This document shows, one piece after another, positions 51,331 through 64,000 of a DNA stretch of 64,000 nucleotides; within the stretch, counting starts at the first letter, position 1; each line of letters starts with the position of its first letter. Source of the stretch: Naegleria gruberi. Taxonomy: Eukaryota. The notes under the pieces are model-generated. The model did not search any database. It was given only the letters and a program-made list of their open reading frames with translations, and was not told where the DNA came from. Location of the stretch: NCBI GenBank assembly GCA_000004985.1, contig GG738889.1; one strand, written 5' to 3'. The position numbers and the translations under genes are program-made.

Positions 51331-51605
51331 ATCAGGGAATTTTTCAGAGTCGAATTTTGATTCAGCTATTGGATCAAAACTCTCTATCAAATCAATTTGA
51401 TCCTCGAAAAATTTAATTCGGATCACAACTCAACATCAAATTGTTTATTTTTCAAAATTTGATATTGAGTTTTCACAAACTGACCATCAAAAATTTTATA
51501 CGGGACGCAGTATTATTAAGATTTAAAAAAAGGCTTTTTGGAATGACCAACAACGCTTTGAATAACAACAATACCAACACACTATTTTTAGCGAACACAC
51601 GGAAG

Positions 51606-54600
51606 ATGTGGTCGTCTTCAATGGTATATTGTGTTCTTATTTTAATGTTGATAATATACTTTATTGAGGCTACGGAATCAACAATAACGTGCAATAACAT
51701 TGATAGCAACTTGAGTAATGTTTGCTCAGGAAATGGAATTTGTATTTCCAATAATGTTTGTTCGTGTTATGTTGGTTTTGATGGAGCTGCTTGCGATACA
51801 CCAAGAACTATTCAGAATTTATTTGCAGGATACTCTGTCTTATCAAGAAATTCTTCAATATCATCCAACAAAATAATTAATTTATTTGGAAATGTTGCAA
51901 ACACTCCCTCATCGTCTCAACTCTATACTAATTTCAATATAACATCAGGTATTACACATGATGGAGATGTCTATGCTTCTCATTACATTAACCAAGCAGA
52001 ACAATACTTTAAACAATTAGACAACCTTCCTTGCGATTTTACTCTGAGATCATCTCCCCGTATTGGTAGAATTGAGGTTCGTTATGGAGGTGTTGGTTGT
52101 TTTGAGGCTGGTTGGACTGGTCCATCAACAGTGGTTATTAAGGGCTCTCAACGAGTAGTTTTCAAGATTAAGGGTAATTTCATTACCAATGAAATAACCT
52201 TTGCTCTCTCCAAATGTGCCTCAGAGAATAATATTTACTGGCTTGTGAATGGTAATACAAAGATAACTAACAATTTTAAGGGAATTCTGAAAACTGCTGG
52301 AAAGGTCGATATCACTAATGCTAACATTGATGGAACATTGTTCATTAATAATACCTCTGCGACTTTTACAAATGTAACCTTTGGACCTGTCTCCACATTT
52401 GATCCATATCAGTCATTAACTAACTCTGAGTGCTCTCTTTCTTCTTGTTATGGAATCCTTTCCAATGAAACATCTGTTTGTGCTGGTGTAGGTTTATGTT
52501 ACGATGACAATGCCTGTTTTTGTCCATTGGGATATGGACAAGATTGTTCATTACCTTTGTGTTATGGAGTGCTTCAAAACTCTGCTAGCGTATGTTCTGG
52601 CAACGGTAATTGTACAGGACCAGATACATGTGAATGCAAAGAAGGTCATCTGGGATTGAATTGTTCAATTTCTCTCCCACCTTGCTATGGAATTGGAAAT
52701 GATACCAGTCGCATTTGCTCAGGTGTTGGAAATTGTACATCGAAAGGAGTGTGCAGTTGCCCTGATGGATATGGATTTGATTGCTCAGTACCCATTTGTA
52801 ATGGAGTGCTTGCCTACAACAAAGCATGCAGTTCTCATGGTACATGTATTGCCCCTAACAGTTGCTCATGCTCATCTCATTATCATGGAGACAATTGTGA
52901 GCTTACTACATGTTTCGATATTCCATCAGATAATTCCACGACTTGTTCTGGAAATGGTGACTGTATAGATTACAATCGCTGTAGATGTTTTGATGGGTAT
53001 CAAGGAAGTGATTGTGGTCAGTTGACAACTACAATAATCTACGAAAATATCACAATCTATGAGAATGAAACCATATGGATTGAATATAACACCACAGAAT
53101 ATATCAATGAAACTATATATATTCGTCAAAATCAAACAGATGTAGTAATTGATGATGGTGCAATTATATTTACACCAAACCCTACAGGATCTAATCCAAT
53201 TACTTTCAACACAACTAGAGTCAATGTCACTATTATTACCTACTATAATGCAACCTCAAATTCTACTACCACAGTGACAACAACTACAACAACTGTTGTC
53301 GTGTATACCACAATAGTGTGTAGTAAATCCCTTAATTGTTCCAATCATGGAGAATGTAATTCCAATGGAGCTTGTACTTGCTATTCAAACTTTGATACTG
53401 GTTTTTGGTCAGGTTCTAGTTGTAACACTTGTAGAGATGGATTCCATGGTAATAATTGTGCTACAAAGGTTGTTGGACCTGCTTACATATCCAATGATTT
53501 CACAGGAGTTACGTTTTATCTTTATGCACCAAACTCTTACACAAGTAATCAAATAAGCTGCAACAAACTATTACATCCTGATGATATCAGTAGTAACATG
53601 TTTGGAGATGCAAGCAAAATACAATGTAGCTATGTAGATAGGGCTAGCTACTTGTTTATGATTACTTTTGGGTCTAATGATTATGTATTTAATGCTGGTG
53701 CGTCTAACTTACGTATTAACACTCATGTATTTGATCAGAGTGCAGGTTCTGCAGATTATCTTTCAATGATTATCAATCTACCACAAGGATTTTCTGGTCC
53801 AGTAGCCAAGATTTCAATGGCGTTTACTTCAACATACAGCTCTTGCGAAGAAATTGTAATTGATGGTTCAGGAAGTACTGCACCATATGGAGGTAGTCTT
53901 ACATATTACTGGACTTTGCTTAATGCAGCTACAATGCAGGTTTTATCGACAAACTTTGCAAATCAACCAAAAATTACTCTTCCAGCTTCATTAAGTTCTG
54001 GAAGTTACCAAGTATCTCTGAAAATTCAAGGTGAATTCTTACATCTTTCCAGTGCAGTAGTACACACAGGAACATTCACTAAAGCTCCAAAACCTGTTCC
54101 AGTAATAACTTTTTACAAAGGAAATACCCAGCTAAGGTATACTAATCAATTCCCATATACAATCAAAAAAGTAATCGAATCTCCTTGTAGAGACTCAAAT
54201 AATACAATAGTACGTTGGGAACAACTAAGCGGACCATCTATTGAGTACTCAGTGGACTCCTATAACAATCTATACATCCCAAAACTCAAAACATTTGGAA
54301 ACAATAACTATACATTTAAGGTATCCGCTTATTATACTGATGCAAATTATCAAGGTTCTAGTGATTTTGTTTTAATTACACAATCACCTCCTTTGAGTTT
54401 AGAACTTTATCAAGCTGAAGCAAAGACTGATCACTCGACTGTTGAGGTTATTTATTCAGACCCAGAATCTGCTTTAATCTCAAAAAGTGAAACATGGACT
54501 TGGTCTAGCTTGGATTATCAAGGACCAAGATTATATACATTTTTAACTACCCAATCCAATCAAAAATCTTCTAGTCTTTACTTGACATCCAATTATTTTG

Positions 54601-57038
54601 ATCCTGTGCCAGCAATGGTCACAATTCAATTAAGAATTGAAAAATCTGATGGTAGATTTGTACAAAAGTCTTCAATTGTTCGATTTGGTGCTGTTGCTCC
54701 TTCTTTCAACGTAATCAGTCAACAACCAAACACAGCTTACTTAAAACCAGGCTCTCCAATTACAATCCATTCATTGGTTTCTTCCTCTTCAACATCTGTG
54801 TTTGTTTCTTGGAGATTAAACAATGAAATGATTTCAACTACTAAGACAATAATTCAATCAAACTGGGGAAGACAAATTAATCAGGTTATGTTTGACACCT
54901 CAAATCTTGTGGATGGTACAACAAACACAATCACAGCAGTTGTTTCAGATTCAAGCACACAAGGAACAAGTACAACCACAATAGTTGTGCAAGTGGCTAA
55001 ACGTCCATCCCTTTGTGCATGTGATATTACTCCATCAGTTGGTATTGCTATGGAAACACAGTTTTCTTTCGGTTGTACTCAATGCAAAACAACCGACAAC
55101 AATGTTGACTATAATTATGGATTTATAGATGACAGGTCTGGAATGAAGGTGTCTCTGTATAAACTCGGAGAAGTATTTTCATCTACTTTACCAGCTCCAT
55201 TGAATGGAAATACCCTTACTTGTTATATTGACATAATTGATACTGTGACCGGAGGATCGGTTAACATGACAAAGAAAATAACAGTCAACAAACAATCAAC
55301 AACAAGCTTGTCTGAAATTCAAACCTTGGTAAAGTCTTGGACTGATACCGTAAATCAATACTTGAAAGACGGACAAATCAGTAAGAGTTTCTACATGACA
55401 GCAACTTTCCTAAGAACCGATACAGTGCTAGTTAGAGAAGCAATTAAGGTTCTTGCTTCAACTTCAAGAAGAGATATTGTTTGCTCTCATGGTGTTGAAG
55501 TATCTGGAGTTTGTAAATGTGCAGACGGTTATGTTGGTACTAACTGTGAGGTTCCAATATTTGGTTACAGTCAAAGCCAGTCTGTAAAATTAACAGCCTT
55601 TACAAACATTATTAAGCTTTCTAATTCATCTTATGACATCATCAATGATGAGTATTTTACTCTTTTAGTTTTCTCAATAGATTCTGTTTTGGAAAATTAT
55701 GAGTATCTAGAGAAGAAGACTGTTGGACAAGCCCTTGACACTCTGAACCTATACCTTACAAGTGTAGTTGCTATTGATGACTTTAACTTGCCAAACGGAG
55801 TAGAAATTCTTTTGAAAAACATTATTCAAAACACTTATATTTACGTCGTTGAAAAGCAAATGTTCACAGACCAAACAGAAAACTCAAAAAAGTTGCTTAT
55901 TCTCCTCACTTTAACAACAACTCTCATGTCAAGAACCATTTCTTATGGAAGTTCTTCTAGCGTATTCAAAACTCAATATTTTTCATATACAATGAATAAG
56001 TATTCAATTTACGATTTCCCTCCAATTGTGTCAGATAACTCAAGAATATGCCAAATTATTGTTGAAGGGCTGTTTTTCTCAAATGCAAAATCAACAAAAC
56101 TTTACAGACAACCATTTGGTTTTGTTATGACTGTGTCAGATGACGTTTTCCAATTAGGACCAACTATTGGATTGCAAAAATCAACTAAAGAAAACATTCA
56201 AGCAAGTTCCTCACTGGTTTCTCCTATTATGTCCTTATCATTTAATGGGTTGACTGCTCCTGTTGATTTTAATGGTATCATCTATATTCTTCCAATCAAC
56301 AAGACAACTACCTTTAAGATATTTGATCAAGGAACTTTTGATTATGTTGAATCTGTAACTGAATATACATGTAACTCTTTTAAGGATTCACCAGAAGCAA
56401 TTACCAAATGTAAGCTTGTTGAAATGAATGCAACCCACACAAAATGTAGTTGTTCTACCCTGGGTAATGTCTTTGTAATGGAAACCACAACAATTACAAA
56501 ATATTCCCTTACAATCTTTGTGATTATGGGAGCTTCTATTATTGTAATAGGTAGTGCTATAGTCACAATATTCTCATTCTGTTGCTGTTGTTGCCGTTGT
56601 GTTGTGATAGGAAGAAGAAGATTCTCTGAACGTCATAGCGAGGCAAAGATAGTTCGTGTTAAGCATGATGTTAGAGCAATGTTTTTGGAAAAACCAGGTA
56701 CAAATGACTTTGTTACAACAGAAAGAGTTCAACTAAGGAATGATAACAATAAGGTTACAAGAACTATTATAACTACAGACCCTCTCTTAGTTACAAATAA
56801 CACAAAGACAGTTGTTATGCAAAGCCCAAGAATGTACACAAAGGAAACAACCTATGTTACCAAAACTCATCATCACCAAGGAGGACAAACAGTTGTTTTT
56901 GATACACCTAGACCTGAAGTTGTCATAGCATCTCGCCCAAGGGTTCTTGAGGAAATTGTAACCAATCGACCAGTTGTTGTGAGAAGAAATCAAGTTCAAC
57001 CAATGGATGTTGAACTTGTTGAGAGAAGAAGATATTAA
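51606..57038 (+). CDS. large type-I membrane protein with tandem EGF-like repeats, REJ/PKD-like region, single TM and cytoplasmic tail
   Basis: 1865-codon ORF from 51441. Likely start MWSSSMVYCVLILMLIIYFIEA (signal peptide) at 51606. At least 8 Cys-spaced EGF-like units (CSGNGICISNNVCSCYVGFDGAACD; CAGVGLCYDDNACFCPLGYGQDC; CSGNGNCTGPDTCECKEGHLGLNC ...). Many N-x-S/T sites; TM LTIFVIMGASIIVIGSAIVTIFSF followed by CCCCCRC. Confidence 0.7.
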   Translation: MWSSSMVYCVLILMLIIYFIEATESTITCNNIDSNLSNVCSGNGICISNNVCSCYVGFDGAACDTPRTIQNLFAGYSVLSRNSSISSNKIINLFGNVANTPSSSQLYTNFNITSGITHDGDVYASHYINQAEQYFKQLDNLPCDFTLRSSPRIGRIEVRYGGVGCFEAGWTGPSTVVIKGSQRVVFKIKGNFITNEITFALSKCASENNIYWLVNGNTKITNNFKGILKTAGKVDITNANIDGTLFINNTSATFTNVTFGPVSTFDPYQSLTNSECSLSSCYGILSNETSVCAGVGLCYDDNACFCPLGYGQDCSLPLCYGVLQNSASVCSGNGNCTGPDTCECKEGHLGLNCSISLPPCYGIGNDTSRICSGVGNCTSKGVCSCPDGYGFDCSVPICNGVLAYNKACSSHGTCIAPNSCSCSSHYHGDNCELTTCFDIPSDNSTTCSGNGDCIDYNRCRCFDGYQGSDCGQLTTTIIYENITIYENETIWIEYNTTEYINETIYIRQNQTDVVIDDGAIIFTPNPTGSNPITFNTTRVNVTIITYYNATSNSTTTVTTTTTTVVVYTTIVCSKSLNCSNHGECNSNGACTCYSNFDTGFWSGSSCNTCRDGFHGNNCATKVVGPAYISNDFTGVTFYLYAPNSYTSNQISCNKLLHPDDISSNMFGDASKIQCSYVDRASYLFMITFGSNDYVFNAGASNLRINTHVFDQSAGSADYLSMIINLPQGFSGPVAKISMAFTSTYSSCEEIVIDGSGSTAPYGGSLTYYWTLLNAATMQVLSTNFANQPKITLPASLSSGSYQVSLKIQGEFLHLSSAVVHTGTFTKAPKPVPVITFYKGNTQLRYTNQFPYTIKKVIESPCRDSNNTIVRWEQLSGPSIEYSVDSYNNLYIPKLKTFGNNNYTFKVSAYYTDANYQGSSDFVLITQSPPLSLELYQAEAKTDHSTVEVIYSDPESALISKSETWTWSSLDYQGPRLYTFLTTQSNQKSSSLYLTSNYFDPVPAMVTIQLRIEKSDGRFVQKSSIVRFGAVAPSFNVISQQPNTAYLKPGSPITIHSLVSSSSTSVFVSWRLNNEMISTTKTIIQSNWGRQINQVMFDTSNLVDGTTNTITAVVSDSSTQGTSTTTIVVQVAKRPSLCACDITPSVGIAMETQFSFGCTQCKTTDNNVDYNYGFIDDRSGMKVSLYKLGEVFSSTLPAPLNGNTLTCYIDIIDTVTGGSVNMTKKITVNKQSTTSLSEIQTLVKSWTDTVNQYLKDGQISKSFYMTATFLRTDTVLVREAIKVLASTSRRDIVCSHGVEVSGVCKCADGYVGTNCEVPIFGYSQSQSVKLTAFTNIIKLSNSSYDIINDEYFTLLVFSIDSVLENYEYLEKKTVGQALDTLNLYLTSVVAIDDFNLPNGVEILLKNIIQNTYIYVVEKQMFTDQTENSKKLLILLTLTTTLMSRTISYGSSSSVFKTQYFSYTMNKYSIYDFPPIVSDNSRICQIIVEGLFFSNAKSTKLYRQPFGFVMTVSDDVFQLGPTIGLQKSTKENIQASSSLVSPIMSLSFNGLTAPVDFNGIIYILPINKTTTFKIFDQGTFDYVESVTEYTCNSFKDSPEAITKCKLVEMNATHTKCSCSTLGNVFVMETTTITKYSLTIFVIMGASIIVIGSAIVTIFSFCCCCCRCVVIGRRRFSERHSEAKIVRVKHDVRAMFLEKPGTNDFVTTERVQLRNDNNKVTRTIITTDPLLVTNNTKTVVMQSPRMYTKETTYVTKTHHHQGGQTVVFDTPRPEVVIASRPRVLEEIVTNRPVVVRRNQVQPMDVELVERRRY

Positions 57039-57158: not shown

Positions 57159-58571
57159 ATGCAACAAGAGGAAAACACATCTCTCCTTTCACACAATATT
57201 GATGAGTTACAATCCTTTCACACCAACACACCAAATCTATCATCATTAAATCATCAAAAAACACCCGATGAAGGAAATCCTGCCACCACGGAAGAAATAG
57301 AATCACTTTTACATCAAAATTTACCACCTCCTGGTAAATCATCAGCACTTGATGTTGTATTTAATATTAGTAATTGTACAATTGGAGCAGGCGTTTTAGC
57401 AATACCTTTTGCATTCCATCAAAGTGGAATTTTATTGGGATGTTTCATTTTGCTATTTGTTTGTGTCATTTCAACATTGACATCTCAGTTTCTGTTGAGG
57501 GCTTGTGAAATCTCAAAACAACCAACCTATAAGGAAATTGGTATGAAAGCTTTTAAGGGAAACAAGATTGCTGGCTTTATAATTGATATTTCAATGATTG
57601 TATTTTGTTTTGGAGTTATGCTTGGATATACTTCAATTGTTGGAGATTATTCATCAAGTTTATTTAAAACTATTTATTCTGATTATTATTGGCAAGGAGA
57701 AAATGTTAATTATGATAACATTCTATTCTCTAAAAACTTTAATAGCTTTTTATTAATGATAACTGTCATGTTACCTTTGAGTTGTTTCAAAAGAATTGGA
57801 TTTTTGTTTTTTACTTCCTATTTCACAATAGTTTGTGTATTGTATACTTTATTTGTCATAATGTATGGTTTCTTTTCAAAAGTTACAACACTTGATAAGA
57901 GAATTGACCATAGTATTACTTTATTTCAATCATGGGAAAGTTTTTCACAGGTTTTTGTTGCTTTTCCAGTTTTATTCTTTTCATTTGGTAATACTGTTAC
58001 ATTGATTCCAATTTATTACGAATTGAAAAATAAGAATCAGAGAACTATGACTCATGTCATTAATGGAGCTTCAGTTCTCTGTTTGATTTTCTATCTAATT
58101 ACTGGAATATTTGGTTATATTCAATTTGGAGATAATAGCATTAAGGAGAATATTCTAAACTCATTTAGAAAACACAATGTAATGGTAATATTCGCCAAAT
58201 TAGCAATGATTATTGTTTCTGTCATTTCCTATCCGCTTGTTCATTTCCCTGCAAGACAAAATGTTGAACAGCTATTATTCCCAAATAGACCATTTTCTTA
58301 TATTAGATGGATTATTGAGGCAGTTGTGTTTGCAACCTTAACCTTACTAGTTCTATTAATTCCTTTCGATTTGGTTACAATATTTGGAATAACTGGTGCC
58401 AGTGTTGGAATGATGGTCATGTTTATTTTCCCATGTGTATTCTATGCAATTCTTGAGACCAATAAGAAGAAGAGAGCTTTTGCTATTGTGGTTGCTTGTA
58501 TTTGCTTGATTTTAGGAGTAATTTCATCTGCTAGTGTTATTGCTGACTTTGTCCAGAAAATGTCTCAATAA
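57159..58571 (+). CDS. amino acid transporter (Aa_trans / SLC36-SLC38-AVT family), 470 aa
   Basis: About 11 predicted TM helices; N-terminal family signature SALDVVFNISNCTIGAGVLAIPFAFHQSGILLG; single ORF. Confidence 0.7.
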   Translation: MQQEENTSLLSHNIDELQSFHTNTPNLSSLNHQKTPDEGNPATTEEIESLLHQNLPPPGKSSALDVVFNISNCTIGAGVLAIPFAFHQSGILLGCFILLFVCVISTLTSQFLLRACEISKQPTYKEIGMKAFKGNKIAGFIIDISMIVFCFGVMLGYTSIVGDYSSSLFKTIYSDYYWQGENVNYDNILFSKNFNSFLLMITVMLPLSCFKRIGFLFFTSYFTIVCVLYTLFVIMYGFFSKVTTLDKRIDHSITLFQSWESFSQVFVAFPVLFFSFGNTVTLIPIYYELKNKNQRTMTHVINGASVLCLIFYLITGIFGYIQFGDNSIKENILNSFRKHNVMVIFAKLAMIIVSVISYPLVHFPARQNVEQLLFPNRPFSYIRWIIEAVVFATLTLLVLLIPFDLVTIFGITGASVGMMVMFIFPCVFYAILETNKKKRAFAIVVACICLILGVISSASVIADFVQKMSQ

Positions 58572-58688: not shown

Positions 58689-59810
58689 ATGTCCCAACAT
58701 AACTTTACCAACAGATTTGTTCCAGCCTCAAGCCTTTCTATTGGATCAGGAGCAAACAATACTATCAGCAGCAGCAGTAGCAGTGGTGCCTCTACCAATC
58801 GTCGCTCCTCCTTCTACTCCAACTCTGCCATGATGGCCAATAATTCATCATCACTCATAGGAAGTACAACAAATTCCTTTTCAAAGGCTACAAATAATGG
58901 TACTTCAGGACCACAACAACCACATGGATCGTCCACCTTGTTATTCTCTCATGCCAATAGAAGAGAAAGTTTTGGTGCTCCATCAAGACCAGGTGGATTT
59001 ACTCCAGGTTTGGGAGTTTCCCAATTGATTCATCATCAACATGGTGTAGGATCGAATAATAGTTCTGGTTTGATGAATAGTAGTGTTTCAGGTGCTATTA
59101 ATAATAATACTACTACTTTGAATACGAGTGGGTCAGGTGTATCATCTTCTATTGTTGTTGGGAATATTCTCAACAACACGAGTAATAGTGCTAGTAATAA
59201 TAACAACAATAGAAATTCATTGTCTGGTTCCTTCTCTCAACAAAATAGAAAGAGAGTTGCTCAAACAATGCTTCCACCTAGATCGATCAATACATTCCAC
59301 AATATTCTTGGTACATCTAGTTCACAAAAGGAAGATGTTCTTTCTCCAGAGGAAACAATTTGTAAAACTAATCCACTTGATGAAGCTTTGGTGAAGGAAA
59401 ATGCTGAATTAAAGAAGGAAAATGAAGATTTGAAACAACAATTACAAAAGTTGAAAGCTCAAATGATTGAGAGGGAAAAGGAAATGGTTGATAAGGAAGA
59501 TCAATTGAAAAAAGCACAATTTGCTAGTAAGGAGCTAACTGATTGTAAAAAGTATATTGAAAACATGTCACTTAAATTGATAGAATTAGGTGTTGATCCT
59601 AATACATTGAAGCAACATCCATCTAGCACTCTTTCATATGATTTGGTAAGTAATAATCTAATATCATATTTTCTAATGTTTTATTAGAGCAATATTCTTA
59701 TTGGTTCTTCTGTTGAGCTTGATGACTCTGTTAGAGAATTGGAAAATGTTCTCTTCAAGTATTCACCACTCTATTCCAAAACTTCAACTCTTATGCAATT
59801 GGAAGATTAA
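58689..59810 (+). CDS. S/N-rich protein with C-terminal coiled coil, 2 exons
   Basis: join(58689..59645,59688..59810). Donor TTG|GTAAGT, 42-nt intron, acceptor TTATTAG|; joins ...LSYDL|SNILIGSSVELDDSVRELENVLFKYSPLYSKTSTLMQLED*. Coiled-coil ENAELKKENEDLKQQLQKLKAQMIEREKEMVDKEDQLKK. Confidence 0.5.
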
Positions 59811-60268: not shown

Positions 60269-61362
60269 TTATTCTTGCTTTTCATGACTGTTCATAGAAT
60301 TCCATTCCTTCAAGAACTTTTGTCTTTCACTAACTGAAGAGTTGACTGAAACTATTCCAAGAACTTTTGGTAAAACAAGCTTTCTAATAGCAGAAAGAGT
60401 AAAGTCTAGTAAAATTGAATGAGTTTCAAATAATAAGAGAATAAAAACTTACTTTGTTCAAGAGATTTTCTATCTTCTTCACCCAAATAAATTTCAGCTA
60501 CATTCAATGTATTGTAAACTTGAGCCAAAGTTCCATAAATATGTTGCCAAAAATTACCAAGATGATAAGCTGGACTGAATTCTTCATAAGTATATTTGAA
60601 TCCAATGATAACAACTTGGAAATTCTTATCTTCTCTCAATACTTGTTCCATATCATCAAAGAAATAATTGTGGAACTTTAAAACACCTCTACCATTTGAA
60701 GTAACTGCTTCAGGGAAGACAACGACTGGTCCTCTGGAATATTTCTTAGCATCTCTAACAATTTCATGAAGAGGTTGACAATCCTTATGAAGATTATCAG
60801 TACTTTCACTAAATTGTCCAAACAAAGTATGATAAAGAGCTCCAAAAAATCCAAAAGGTTTCAATCCATAAATAACTTCACCATTTTCAATCTTACTCTT
60901 GACAGCCATTGCAAAAACTGGAGAATATTTGAAATTCAAATAAAAAAAATCAATATAAGAAACATAATTTGAAACAATCAAATCTCCATGAGCAATATCA
61001 GAAGGGACAGTCTTCTTATCCTTTCCTTCCAAATCAACTTGCTTACTCTTAACTCCACTAAATCCCAACAAGGTAAACAAAGCACATCCACAACACAAAA
61101 TACTTGCATAACGATGTAACAATCTCTTAATAAAACCAATCGGAATGATCATTGAAACATGTTGTACAGCAAAATATGGTATTAAAAAGATGCAAATTAA
61201 TAAAAACTTGATCAGGAATGGAACAGGTGAGATCAATGCTCTAAGAGGCTTTAAAACAAATTTTTGGAGTGTCGTCAAGTCTCGGAATGAATTTTTCTTT
61301 CGGTACGGAACAAAAGGATTGACGCCTGTGGCATCATCGGTAAACTTTTTAAATTTTTCCAT
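60269..61362 (-). CDS. PlsC-family (lysophospholipid) acyltransferase-like protein, 2 exons; motif I is N-Y rather than N-H
   Basis: complement(join(60269..60405,60453..61362)). ATG 61362; TM segments; motif I region IVSNYVSYIDFFYL (canonical NHxSxxD has Y in place of H); motif III VVFPEAVTSNGRGVLKF (FPEGT-type). 47-nt intron A|GTAAGT...TTTACTAG| adds NFTLSAIRKLVLPKVLGIVSVNSSVSERQKFLKEWNSMNSHEKQE*. Confidence 0.55.
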
Positions 61363-61611
61363 TTTTTTTTAAATTTAAAAATAAAAATTGATTACGTTTC
61401 AATTTTTTTAAAATTCCAACAACGAAATTAGCAAATCGAACAGAAAATGGAAGATTGCAAAGAATGTATTGAACTTTGAAAAGAATAAAGAAAAATTGAA
61501 CTGTTTCTTGACAGGTATTGTTTTCTAGACGGTGTTCGTTTTAACAATGAACGGTTCTTTTGATTTTCCCTTTAACTTGTCAATGTAACGTCAAAACAAA
61601 AGTTGAAAAAA

Positions 61612-62444
61612 ATGTCAGCAGATGAATATGGATCAGATAGTGGGTATGTTTTTAACACAATTAGGAATAAGTAAACAAACTATCAAATTTTTTAGTATAC
61701 CAACATTTAAAATCATTGTGATTGGTGACGTTTCCGTTGGTAAAACATCATTTGTATCAAGGTTTTGTGAAGGAGAATTCAAGGAAAGTTATCCATCATC
61801 AATTGGTGTTGATTTTAAATCAAAGGAAGTTAGAACAAATGATAATTCCAATGTAAAATTACAAATTTGGGATTTTAGTGCTGACATTTCTTCTAGATTC
61901 GTAACTGTTGCTAAACATTTTTATTCGGAAGCTCATGCTATTATTATTGTTTTTGATATTACTAATAAGGAATCTTTCCAAGATTTAGGTATGTGATTGT
62001 AATATTTACTGAAGAACGATTGAATATTTAACCATTTTTAATTCTTCTAATTGTGTTTGATATTTTCATCATTTTGTTTGAATATTATAATAACAATTTT
62101 CATCATTATCAATTTTTATATAATTTTTAATCTCTCAATGAATATTAGAATCTCACTGGTTAGGAGAATTACAACAACAAACTTTGAGAGAAAATCATGT
62201 AAAGATTTTAATTGGTAACAAATCAGATTTGGTTGAGAGAAGAGCTGTTTCTGATGCAACTTCACTCGCTAAGAAATATAATTGTGAATATATGGAAACA
62301 AGTGCCAAGAAAGGAGATAATATTGACAAGGCATTTTCTACACTTGCTCAAAATATTTACAATGCTTGGAAGAATGGAGGGTTCAAAGAAGAGGAATGGG
62401 CTGATGAAAAAGATTCCAAGAAAAAGAAGTGTACTTTACAATAA
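61612..62444 (+). CDS. atypical Rab-like small GTPase (Rab28-like: acidic N-terminus, expanded/degenerate switch II, C-terminal CaaX), 3 exons, 206 aa
   Basis: join(61612..61643,61696..61988,62149..62444). MSADEYGSDSG|IPTFKIIVIGDVSVGKTSFVSRF (G1), SIGVDF (G2), LQIWDFSADISSRF in place of WDTAGQERF (G3), ILIGNKSDL (G4), ETSAKKG (G5), ...KKKKCTLQ* (CaaX). Introns 52 and 160 nt (GG|GTATGT, G|GTATGT). The ORF-track version starting at 61622 reads through intron 1. Confidence 0.7.
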
Positions 62445-62489
62445 ATATATTTCCATTTTAAATATTATTGATATCTCTTATTTTACAAA

Positions 62490-64000
62490 TTATTTGAGAT
62501 CTTTTGAAGGATTTCTAGCCTCTTCTGGTAGAACACCTTCTTTAATCTTTTTGTCAATTCTAAAAAGAATGGAATTAATTACTGATTTACAAAGACCCTT
62601 TTGAGATGCTTCTGCTAATTGGAATCTTTCGGAAAGGTCATCTTGTGAAATATCATAAAGGATATCATACAGAATTTCTGCATAGATTTGATCTGTTGAA
62701 TTCGAAAGGGTATTATTTTGTGGTGTACTCGGTGAAGGTTTGCTTACTTCAAGTAATTGTTTTGGTGCCTTTTTGATGGTATTCATATTTTCTTCATCAT
62801 CATCTGAATCATCATCGTCATTATTGCCACCATCTGAATCATCATCTGAATCTGAATCATCTGAATCGTCACCAAAATCAAATTTCATCTTATTACCAGT
62901 TGATGGAGCAAGTTTGGTTGGAATGACATCTTCTTTTGCATTGTCTGAAATTTGTTGTACTGGTTTTTTCTTTTCTTTCACAGTTCCAAAATCCCATCCA
63001 TCGTTATCTTTTCTATTTACAATTGTTCCTTCTTCATCATCGTCATCATCTGAATCGTCTGATGAATCATCACTTGATGATGATTCAGAAGGATTTTTAG
63101 TATCCGTAATTGGCTTTACATAATTTAATTTGGCTTCAACTAGATCAAGAAGAGTAGAACTCTTCTTTGCATTCTTAATAAATTTGGTTTTAAGAAGATC
63201 TTTGGCGCTTGGTCTTGAACTTGGCTCTTTTTGTAAACATAACTCCACAAACTCTTTAAAATATTTTGATACTTTTGGATCATCTAATTTTGGTGCTGGT
63301 TCTTTTGGAATTTTTAATAAAGCTTGTAATGGCTTTAAGTGACTTAAAGGAGGAACTCCTTTGTACATTTCAATTGCTGTTATTCCTAAAGACCAAATAT
63401 CTGCTTTTTCTGTGTAACCTTGACGAACAATAACTTCTGGGGCCATATACTAAACGATTGTTAAACACAAATAATCTACTAATACATACATATGGGGTAC
63501 CAACAAATGTATATCTCTTTCTATTTCCCATGGTGTTTGTTAATTGTCCAGAAACTCCAAAGTCTTTTTATGATACTTGTTATCAAATAAATCTTTTCAA
63601 CACTTACCTCCGATTTTAATTTGACAATCTTTGGAGATCAAAATATTAGCACTTTTGATGTCTCTGTGAATTTTATCTTCTCCGTGCAAGTATTCCAATC
63701 CCTTTAATGTTTCTCTCATGATTACAGCAATATGTTTTTCTTCAAGACCCTTTGTTTCAGAAGAACCTCGTTGTTTTGATTGAATTTCCATAATATCTTG
63801 AATTGAACACAATAAAAGATCCATAATAATCCACAAAAAAGATCCATTGATAAAAGCTCCATAAACTTTAACTACATGTGGAGAGTTAGTACTCATCTGA
63901 ACGTGAACTTCTTTTTGAATATCCTCAATTTCATCCGTAGCCTCTTCAAGATCAATAATTTTGATAGCGATTGTCTCACCATTTAGCTTGTTGATTCCCT
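62490..64000 (-). CDS. STE20-family (GCK-III/MST-like) serine/threonine protein kinase, 3+ exons, 5' end beyond window
   Basis: complement(join(62490..63449,63490..63563,63608..>64000)). GINKLNGETIAIKIIDLEEATDEIEDIQKEVHV...HIAVIMRETLKGLEYLHGEDKIHRDIKSANILISKDCQIKIG|DFGVSGQLTNTMGNRKRYTFVGTPY|YMAPEVIVRQGYTEKADIWSLGITAIEMYKGVPP...; introns 44 and 40 nt. Asp/Ser-rich acidic tail. Confidence 0.8.

Follow-up and report, generated by a model that had tools for sequence, protein, structure and literature searches.

The window analysed here, a stretch of 64,000 nucleotides from contig GG738889.1 of the Naegleria gruberi assembly GCA_000004985.1, is AT-rich eukaryotic DNA (30% GC) that carries on its + strand a three-exon gene for a Rab-family protein of 206 residues. 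This protein has lost both the glycine and the glutamine of the Rab G3 motif and ends in a polybasic CaaX box. Exon 1 (61612-61643, 32 nt) starts with the ATG at 61612 and encodes MSADEYGSDS together with the first two bases of the codon for G11; it is followed by a phase 2 intron of 52 nt (61644-61695, GTATGT...TTTTAG). Exon 2 (61696-61988, 293 nt) encodes G1, switch I, the interswitch, the degenerate G3 with the start of switch II, and the RabF5 motif. After a phase 1 intron of 160 nt (61989-62148, GTATGT...ATTAG), exon 3 (62149-62444, 296 nt including the TAA stop) supplies G4, G5, helix alpha5 and the C-terminal anchor. An exact look-up finds the product identical to XP_002673601.1 (EFC40857.1, UniProt D2VQE0), annotated publicly as "rab family small GTPase [Naegleria gruberi strain NEG-M]". 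The 32-nt first exon and 52-nt intron proposed in an earlier note on this DNA therefore match the deposited model exactly, while its remark that the gene is mis-started applies to the prokaryote-style list of open reading frames (ORFs) only, since the public annotation already has the correct model.

The G domain is for the most part that of an ordinary Rab. The Pfam Ras family (PF00071) matches residues 16-179 with E = 1.2e-44, and the AlphaFold2 (AF2) model has a GTPase fold with the alternating strand and helix layout of a G domain and a predicted local distance difference test score (pLDDT) of 86. The P-loop or G1 motif GDVSVGKT (residues 21-28, 61724-61747) fits GxxxxGK[ST] and reads GDV[SG]VGKT across the four named orthologues described below. 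The guanine specificity motif G4, GNKSD (residues 131-135, 62214-62228), and G5, ETSAK (residues 158-162, 62295-62309), are likewise intact. These three motifs are as the earlier note described them, but G2, which it also listed as intact, is altered: in the switch I and RabF1 segment YPSSIGVDF (residues 43-51, 61790-61816), aligned with YISTIGVDF of Rab1, the threonine that contacts Mg and the gamma-phosphate (equivalent to Ras T35) is replaced by Ser46. Set against the reference Rab motifs (F1 IGVDF, F2 KLQIW, F3 RFrsiT, F4 YYRGA and F5 LVYDIT), RabF1 and RabF2 are exact, RabF5 reads IVFDIT, and RabF3 (RFVTVA) and RabF4 (HFYSEA) are partial only. The P-loop valine at the position of Ras G12 was considered as a possible 'oncogenic-like' feature and dropped, this position being variable among normal Rabs (Met in Rab14, Gln in Rab6).

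G3 and the start of switch II, WDFSADISSRF (residues 69-79, 61868-61900), depart much further from the Rab pattern. In the HMMER alignment with Rab1 structures (wdfsadissrf against wdtag--qerf) the glycine of DxxG is replaced by Ala73, the catalytic glutamine by serine, and two residues are inserted, just as had been proposed from the letters of the DNA; the Mg-coordinating aspartate, Asp70, is kept. Among single-domain Rab-like database matches the same glycine is kept in 379 of 386 and the glutamine in 360 of 386. Core confidence of the AF2 model is lowest in this loop (mean pLDDT 63 over residues 71-80). The C-terminus, SKKKKCTLQ (residues 198-206, 62415-62441), joins four lysines to a single-cysteine CaaX box (CTLQ, residues 203-206) and lacks the double-cysteine Rab motif (CC, CxC or CCxx). 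This polybasic, farnesyl-type CaaX tail, described by the earlier note, is conserved in the orthologues: K199-K202, C203, Q206 and W192, which lies about 11 residues upstream of the cysteine, are invariant in an alignment of five sequences. A minority of accepted Rabs (Rab8, 13, 18, 23 and 28) also end in CaaX.

We find orthologues in Naegleria lovaniensis (74% identity), Naegleria fowleri (XP_044559214.1) and Willaertia magna (55-57%). Their G3 segments, WDFAADIHNRF, WDFAADIHSRF and WDFQSLNDNRF, are all 11 residues long and all lack the glycine and the glutamine. The three also share SS[IL]GVDF in switch I, GDV[SG]VGKT in the P-loop and a KKKKC[SN][LI]Q tail, so that the sequence features of a polybasic-farnesyl anchor, KKKK-C-x-[LI]-Q, are invariant. 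The gene is under clear purifying selection, because the ratio of nonsynonymous to synonymous divergence (dN/dS) is 0.147 for N. lovaniensis and N. fowleri, an unsaturated pair (dS = 0.34, dN = 0.049). The P-loop, NKxD, SAK and the G3 aspartate do not vary even between species distant enough for synonymous sites to be saturated or nearly so (dS 1.2-2.0). Residues 71-77 of the G3 loop are the fastest-evolving part of the protein: between N. gruberi and N. lovaniensis the proportion of nonsynonymous differences (pN) is 0.36 there and 0.16 overall, about twofold higher, and the seven residues read FSADISS in N. gruberi and FAADIHN, FAADIHS and FQSLNDN in the other species.

Gene structure is shared as well. 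In N. lovaniensis, N. fowleri and W. magna the gene has three introns, and the first and the third of them correspond in position to the two introns of N. gruberi (compared over L001 8238-8716, L004 3201-3674 and L002 8139-8509). Since exon 2 of N. gruberi, at 293 nt, equals the summed exons 2 and 3 (111+182 nt) of the other three species, the comparison indicates that N. gruberi has lost the middle intron. The G3 segment sits midway along exon 2, and none of the forward frames of 61501-62500 contains another coding segment of the form D..G[QS]. A different splice that would restore a DTAGQ-like motif, named by the earlier note as one way in which its reading could fail, is thus not encoded there. 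Sequencing errors in G3, which it also named, are answered by the same length and type of change in four independently sequenced genomes.

Profile searches recover less derived relatives from Acrasis kona and from three metagenome sequences. The most complete is a JGI metagenome contig (L003) on which a full three-exon gene could be reconstructed; its product, MSDEYAQNAEIP..., carries GNTGVGKT, STLGVDF and WDFAGSERF and ends in ...KKKKCILQ. An ENA metagenome fragment (P0278) has WDFAGSDRF and ...KRKCILQ, and a second JGI fragment (P0280) has WDIAGSGRF and ...KKKCLVM. The G3 consensus of these metagenome relatives, WD[FI]AGS[EDG]RF, keeps the glycine and has serine at the glutamine position. 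The A. kona protein (P0277) has SSLGVDF, WDFEGNQQRF and a TKxD-type G4 (GTKCD); its G3 keeps the glycine, has asparagine at the canonical glutamine position and places two glutamines one residue away. Traits common to the family are a DEYG-like motif at the N-terminus, an HW(L/G)xE motif, a tryptophan about 11 residues before the cysteine and a basic CaaX tail. The N-termini read DEYGAESGIP in N. lovaniensis and N. fowleri, SDGYGIESSIP in Willaertia, SDEYAQNAEIP in the L003 protein and GDEYGRDTQLP in Acrasis, and M-S-(A)-D-E-Y-G is a family signature. The family is monophyletic in 95-97% of neighbour-joining (NJ) bootstraps (482 of 500 replicates in one run).

These relatives order the changes in the switch regions. 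Because relatives that retain the glycine already lack glutamine at its canonical position, the sequence comparison indicates that the motif decayed in steps. Switch I has serine in Acrasis as well as in Naegleria and Willaertia and threonine in the L003 relative, and only in the lineage of Naegleria and Willaertia is the glycine gone and the loop longer by two residues.

The taxonomic range of the family is narrow. No member was found in named organisms outside Heterolobosea by word-indexed profile searches, which scored no more than the 8000 candidates with the most words in common and could miss distant members. Beyond A. kona and the three metagenome members, the second and third profile searches reach a plateau of ordinary Rab1 proteins. 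An exhaustive representative search with the Naegleria and Willaertia profile returned mostly tandem or fused multi-Rab gene models and two useful fragments, P0168 and P0196. Within the reach of these searches, the clade is known in named organisms only from Heterolobosea (Naegleria, Willaertia and Acrasis), together with its environmental relatives.

The annotated Acrasis protein (237 residues; JAOPGA020000784.1, L005 6680-6830) has a last intron of 78 nt, against 36-40 nt for its other introns. Read unspliced, this region ends in ...KKKKNGNCVIV-TGA, a polybasic CaaX as in other family members, and the intron is probably spurious and the deposited C-terminus mis-annotated. The same Acrasis gene lies directly downstream of a TTC21/IFT139-like gene, coding for a component of intraflagellar transport (IFT) complex A (L005 1486-5929), an arrangement that may be coincidence but could be relevant to a ciliary link and to whether Acrasis has retained flagellar genes. 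We also note two Rab1-like ENA metagenome predictions (P0212 and P0274) in which G3 is replaced by WDHYLDHCGRPVTRL (WDHYLDHCGRP) and which end in a -CFLQ CaaX; these are more likely to be frameshifted predictions than a second G3-disrupted, farnesyl-type Rab.

The affinities of the family point to the Rab1/Rab35/Rab8 'secretory' supergroup. Scored against human reference sequences (of which Rab28 alone was verified, being exact to PDB 2hxs over residues 11-184), a hidden Markov model (HMM) of the family gives 202 bits to Rab1A, about 186 to Rab8A, Rab10 and Rab35, 172 to Rab30 and 167 to Rab39B. BLASTP with the N. gruberi protein gives 125 bits to Rab1A and 124 to RAB39B, and Foldseek with the AF2 model is led by Rab1b, Rab8a, Rab11 and Rab27; the best matches in sequence and in structure are all Rabs. 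A profile of the less derived members matches a plateau of Rab1/Ypt1/RabD proteins, and among the 482 NJ replicates with a monophyletic family, Rab1A falls in the sister clade in 286. A published Rab survey includes the same sequence as "NaGr_Rab39" in its group I (Rab1/8/18) alignment (Kloepper et al., 2012; PMC3425129, Additional file 4). The label cannot mean orthology, because the same authors describe Rab39 as a metazoan duplication of Rab2 (PMC3425129). Orthology to Rab39 is also rejected on the NJ trees, where RAB39B groups with RAB33B and RAB30 and not with the family. The AGSE in G3 and TKxD in G4 of some members raised the possibility of kinship with Rab24, which was rejected too (113 bits from the family HMM and no grouping in the trees). 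On these profile and tree comparisons the protein is best described as a divergent, lineage-restricted Rab paralogue with affinity to Rab1 and group I.

We favour, with moderate confidence, the reading that this Rab-family protein of Rab1-group affinity is membrane-anchored and binds nucleotide, with an impaired ability to act as a hydrolysing switch. The nucleotide pocket is conserved (P-loop, NKxD, SAK, the G3 aspartate and the switch I phenylalanine), and the protein is predicted still to bind nucleotide. Its G3 lacks both glycine and glutamine, which is the sequence criterion for a pseudoGTPase. In Ras, the G60A substitution leaves nucleotide bound and blocks the conformational change that GTP induces, and no intrinsic hydrolysis remains when Q61 is substituted; Rab24 (DTAGSE) is deficient in GTPase activity. 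Because of these precedents, poor hydrolysis and non-canonical switching are probable. The protein would have little or no intrinsic GTPase activity and would not perform the canonical 'loaded-spring' switch; it may be constitutively loaded or insensitive to its nucleotide state, in the manner of a pseudoGTPase.

At the other end of the protein, farnesylation of Cys203 is predicted because the final residue of the CaaX box is glutamine, the farnesyltransferase (FTase) type, as in -CAVQ of human Rab28, which is prenylated exclusively by FTase (PMC1847700). The farnesyl group and the adjacent KKKK patch would keep the protein at an anionic membrane, with the plasma membrane as the likeliest site, and would do so without Rab escort protein (REP), geranylgeranyltransferase II (GGTase-II) or cycling by GDP dissociation inhibitor (GDI). 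There it may act as a membrane-resident adaptor through the still-conserved surface of the interswitch and helix alpha2.

Several points weigh against this reading. The switch I change from threonine to serine is conservative and occurs in 44 of 381 other Rab-like matches, a set biased by word-based retrieval. RabGAPs, the GTPase-activating proteins (GAPs) with a TBC domain, supply an arginine and a glutamine finger in trans, so that loss of the cis glutamine alone need not block GAP-stimulated hydrolysis. The DxxG glycine contacts the gamma-phosphate by its backbone amide, and an alanine or serine in a longer loop might still do so. The KKKK patch is preceded by an acidic stretch, EEEWADEKD, which brings the net charge of the tail to about zero, and targeting to the plasma membrane is a guess from the tail sequence. 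Bootstrap support for the grouping with Rab1 and Rab35 is low, at 11-18% for the exact splits, and 59% of replicates have Rab1A in the sister clade. No specific sister group is well supported, and as far as the trees resolve it the protein is not a Rab1 orthologue. No biochemical, expression or localisation data were found, and a literature search by XP_002673601, EFC40857 and D2VQE0 returned nothing.

A wider and more tentative interpretation concerns the family as a whole. Heterolobosea may have a subfamily, derived from Rab1, that preserves a natural record of how a Rab switch became, step by step and under purifying selection, a pseudoGTPase that is farnesylated and constitutively bound to membranes, with the Naegleria and Willaertia protein acting as a nucleotide-loaded structural adaptor rather than as a timer. 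The conversion would have begun with loss of the canonical glutamine (now serine in the metagenome relatives and asparagine in Acrasis), continued with the change of the switch I threonine to serine, and ended with loss of the DxxG glycine and the two-residue insertion.

The strongest competitor to an impaired switch is that the protein remains a conventional GTP/GDP switch, in which catalysis would come from a TBC-type GAP in trans or from a loop residue such as Asp74 or Ser76/77, and the lengthened switch II would keep its ability to sense the gamma-phosphate. G1, G4, G5 and the G3 aspartate are strictly conserved under purifying selection, the alpha2 helix immediately following the loop (RF.xVAKH.Y.EAH) shows good conservation, and unusual catalysis has precedent both in the dual arginine and glutamine finger of TBC GAPs and in Rap1, which works without Gln61. 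However, the seven loop residues vary freely, at about twice the rate of the protein, which is unlike the behaviour of a relocated catalytic residue. The glycine that drives the switch through its flexibility and its amide is moreover present in 98% of related Rabs and missing from all four named orthologues. We regard a conventional switch as unlikely on this balance.

A protein that keeps the G-domain fold only, as a nucleotide-free scaffold (a class i pseudoGTPase), is less probable still. Loss of the G3 glycine and switch I changes do occur in some nucleotide-free pseudoGTPases (PMC12490416), but GxxxxGKT, NKxD and SAK are invariant over distances that bring synonymous sites to saturation or close to it, a constancy that would be hard to account for if no nucleotide were bound, and we consider this explanation improbable.

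The earlier note had called the protein Rab28-like, and a ciliary GTPase of the flagellate stage, related to Rab28 or else to IFT27 or RABL2, is an alternative with some points in its favour. Human Rab28 and the N. gruberi protein both end in a farnesyl-type CaaX whose last residue is glutamine, Naegleria and Willaertia have flagellate stages, and the Acrasis family gene adjoins the TTC21/IFT139 homologue. The sequence comparisons nevertheless speak against it throughout. From the family HMM, Rab28 receives 110 bits and the Rab28 of N. gruberi itself 84, against 202 for Rab1A; KRAS4B (115) and Rab24 (113) score above both, and IFT27 (101) and RABL2B (89) are no closer to the Rab1A score. BLASTP gives Rab28 79 bits against 125 for Rab1A, and Rab28 is not among the best 60 PDB sequence matches or the best 50 Foldseek matches of the AF2 model. 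The phylogenetic comparison with Rab28, IFT27 and RABL2 that the earlier note had proposed as a check likewise fails to bear out the label, since just 27 of the 482 replicates make Rab28/IFT27 the exact sister group, a pattern consistent with long-branch attraction. The hallmark WD[IV]xGQ..G.K is absent from the protein, whose RabF1 and RabF2 motifs (IGVDF, KLQIW) are canonical, unlike those of Rab28.

N. gruberi has, in addition, a Rab28 and an IFT27 of its own. Group VI of the published survey contains a separate NaGr_Rab28 (WDVEGQSLGSK...), which ends in CCIS and not in a CaaX of the -xxQ type, and a NaGr_RabL4, the N. gruberi IFT27/RabL4, whose G3 (FDISGSS) also lacks the catalytic glutamine (PMC3425129, Additional file 9). 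An N. gruberi Rab28 (JGI 33099) appears in the Rabifier paper as well. In the NJ tree NaGr_Rab28 and its human counterpart form a pair with 98% bootstrap, and NaGr_RabL4 likewise groups with human IFT27 (support not listed). Identity with IFT27/RABL4 or RABL2 is rejected on their low scores, the separate NaGr_RabL4 and the presence of the CaaX box. No evidence of a flagellar role was found. A Rab28-like or IFT27/RABL2-like identity thus seems to us very improbable, and by profile score and tree neither Rab28 nor another of the recognised ancestral Rabs is orthologous to the protein.

We give practically no credence to an artefact, whether a pseudogene, an erroneous sequence or assembly of G3 or an incorrect splice model, since the oddity of the motif alone speaks for it, whereas the same G3 length and type of change in four independently sequenced genomes, the conserved intron positions, a dN/dS of 0.15, the mid-exon location of G3 with no alternative coding segment and the identity of the product with the public gene model all speak against it.

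The surroundings of the gene show that synteny is partly kept overall. A convergent protein kinase gene lies downstream (62490-63446), 45 bp past the stop codon, and is shared with N. lovaniensis. Upstream, N. lovaniensis, N. fowleri and Willaertia have DCTN5 (dynactin-5), and here synteny is broken in N. gruberi, where the neighbour is instead a divergent ORF (60406-61362, - strand) 249 bp away with a weak acyltransferase match (PF01553, E = 3.7e-4, under the gathering score). Further upstream the window holds, on the + strand, an open frame of 1865 residues (51441-57038) with teneurin-type EGF repeats and a REJ domain (PF02010), which by its domain content is a large polycystin/REJ-like surface protein. 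It is followed by an amino-acid transporter ORF (57159-58571, +; Aa_trans, E = 4e-58) and then by an ORF (58689-59687, +) with a weak match to centrosomin motif 1 (E = 4.6e-4, under the gathering score).

The gene itself is already known, having been annotated and catalogued in a Rab survey. We found no earlier description of the family, of its restriction to Heterolobosea or of the graded loss of its switch residues. If the stepwise interpretation is true, Acrasis and the environmental relatives, and then Willaertia and Naegleria, would form a rare surviving series of decay from GTPase to pseudoGTPase, offering living intermediates for ancestral-state and swap studies of each G2 and G3 change. 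The tail, as predicted here from sequence, suggests that a Rab can exchange the REP/GGTase-II/GDI system for a farnesyl-polybasic anchor in the style of Ras and Rho. The analysis also corrects a tempting mis-assignment, in that a CaaX ending in glutamine does not mean Rab28, and it marks the orthologue of the pathogen N. fowleri (XP_044559214.1) as a predicted farnesyltransferase client. These points are tempered by the many divergent Rab-like proteins held by protists with expanded Rab families, and the analysis links the gene to no particular cellular process.

Among known systems, the protein is most similar in sequence and structure to Rab1/Ypt1 and the other group I 'secretory' Rabs (Rab1, Rab35 and Rab8/10), with which it shares canonical RabF1, RabF2 and RabF5 motifs. 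It differs from them in lacking WDTAGQE and the CC or CxC terminus, in having a polybasic CaaX and in belonging to a separate, long-branched clade (95-97% bootstrap). The sole trait shared with Rab28 is the single-cysteine CaaX ending in glutamine, which is not evidence of orthology; Rab28 retains DxxGQ (WDIGGQ), is divergent in its RabF motifs and is a member of the Rab28/IFT27 group. Rab24 resembles the less derived family members in having serine for glutamine (WDTAGSE, compared with WDFAGSERF) and shares TKxD in G4 with Acrasis, but it retains the DxxG glycine and a CCHH tail and, at 113 bits from the family HMM, shows no specific relationship. The RGK GTPases (Rad, Rem, Gem and Kir) and Ras G60A are precedents for proteins that bind nucleotide with a G3 lacking the canonical DxxG(Q) and whose switch is impaired or non-canonical; the RGK proteins differ in belonging to the Ras branch, in their DxWE replacement motifs and in having no CaaX anchor. 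The closest parallel to the predicted anchor is that of K-Ras4B and Rho-type proteins, in which a run of lysines next to the CaaX cysteine forms a two-signal anchor independent of REP and GDI, whereas the N. gruberi protein has only four lysines, placed after an acidic stretch, and couples them to a Rab-type G domain.

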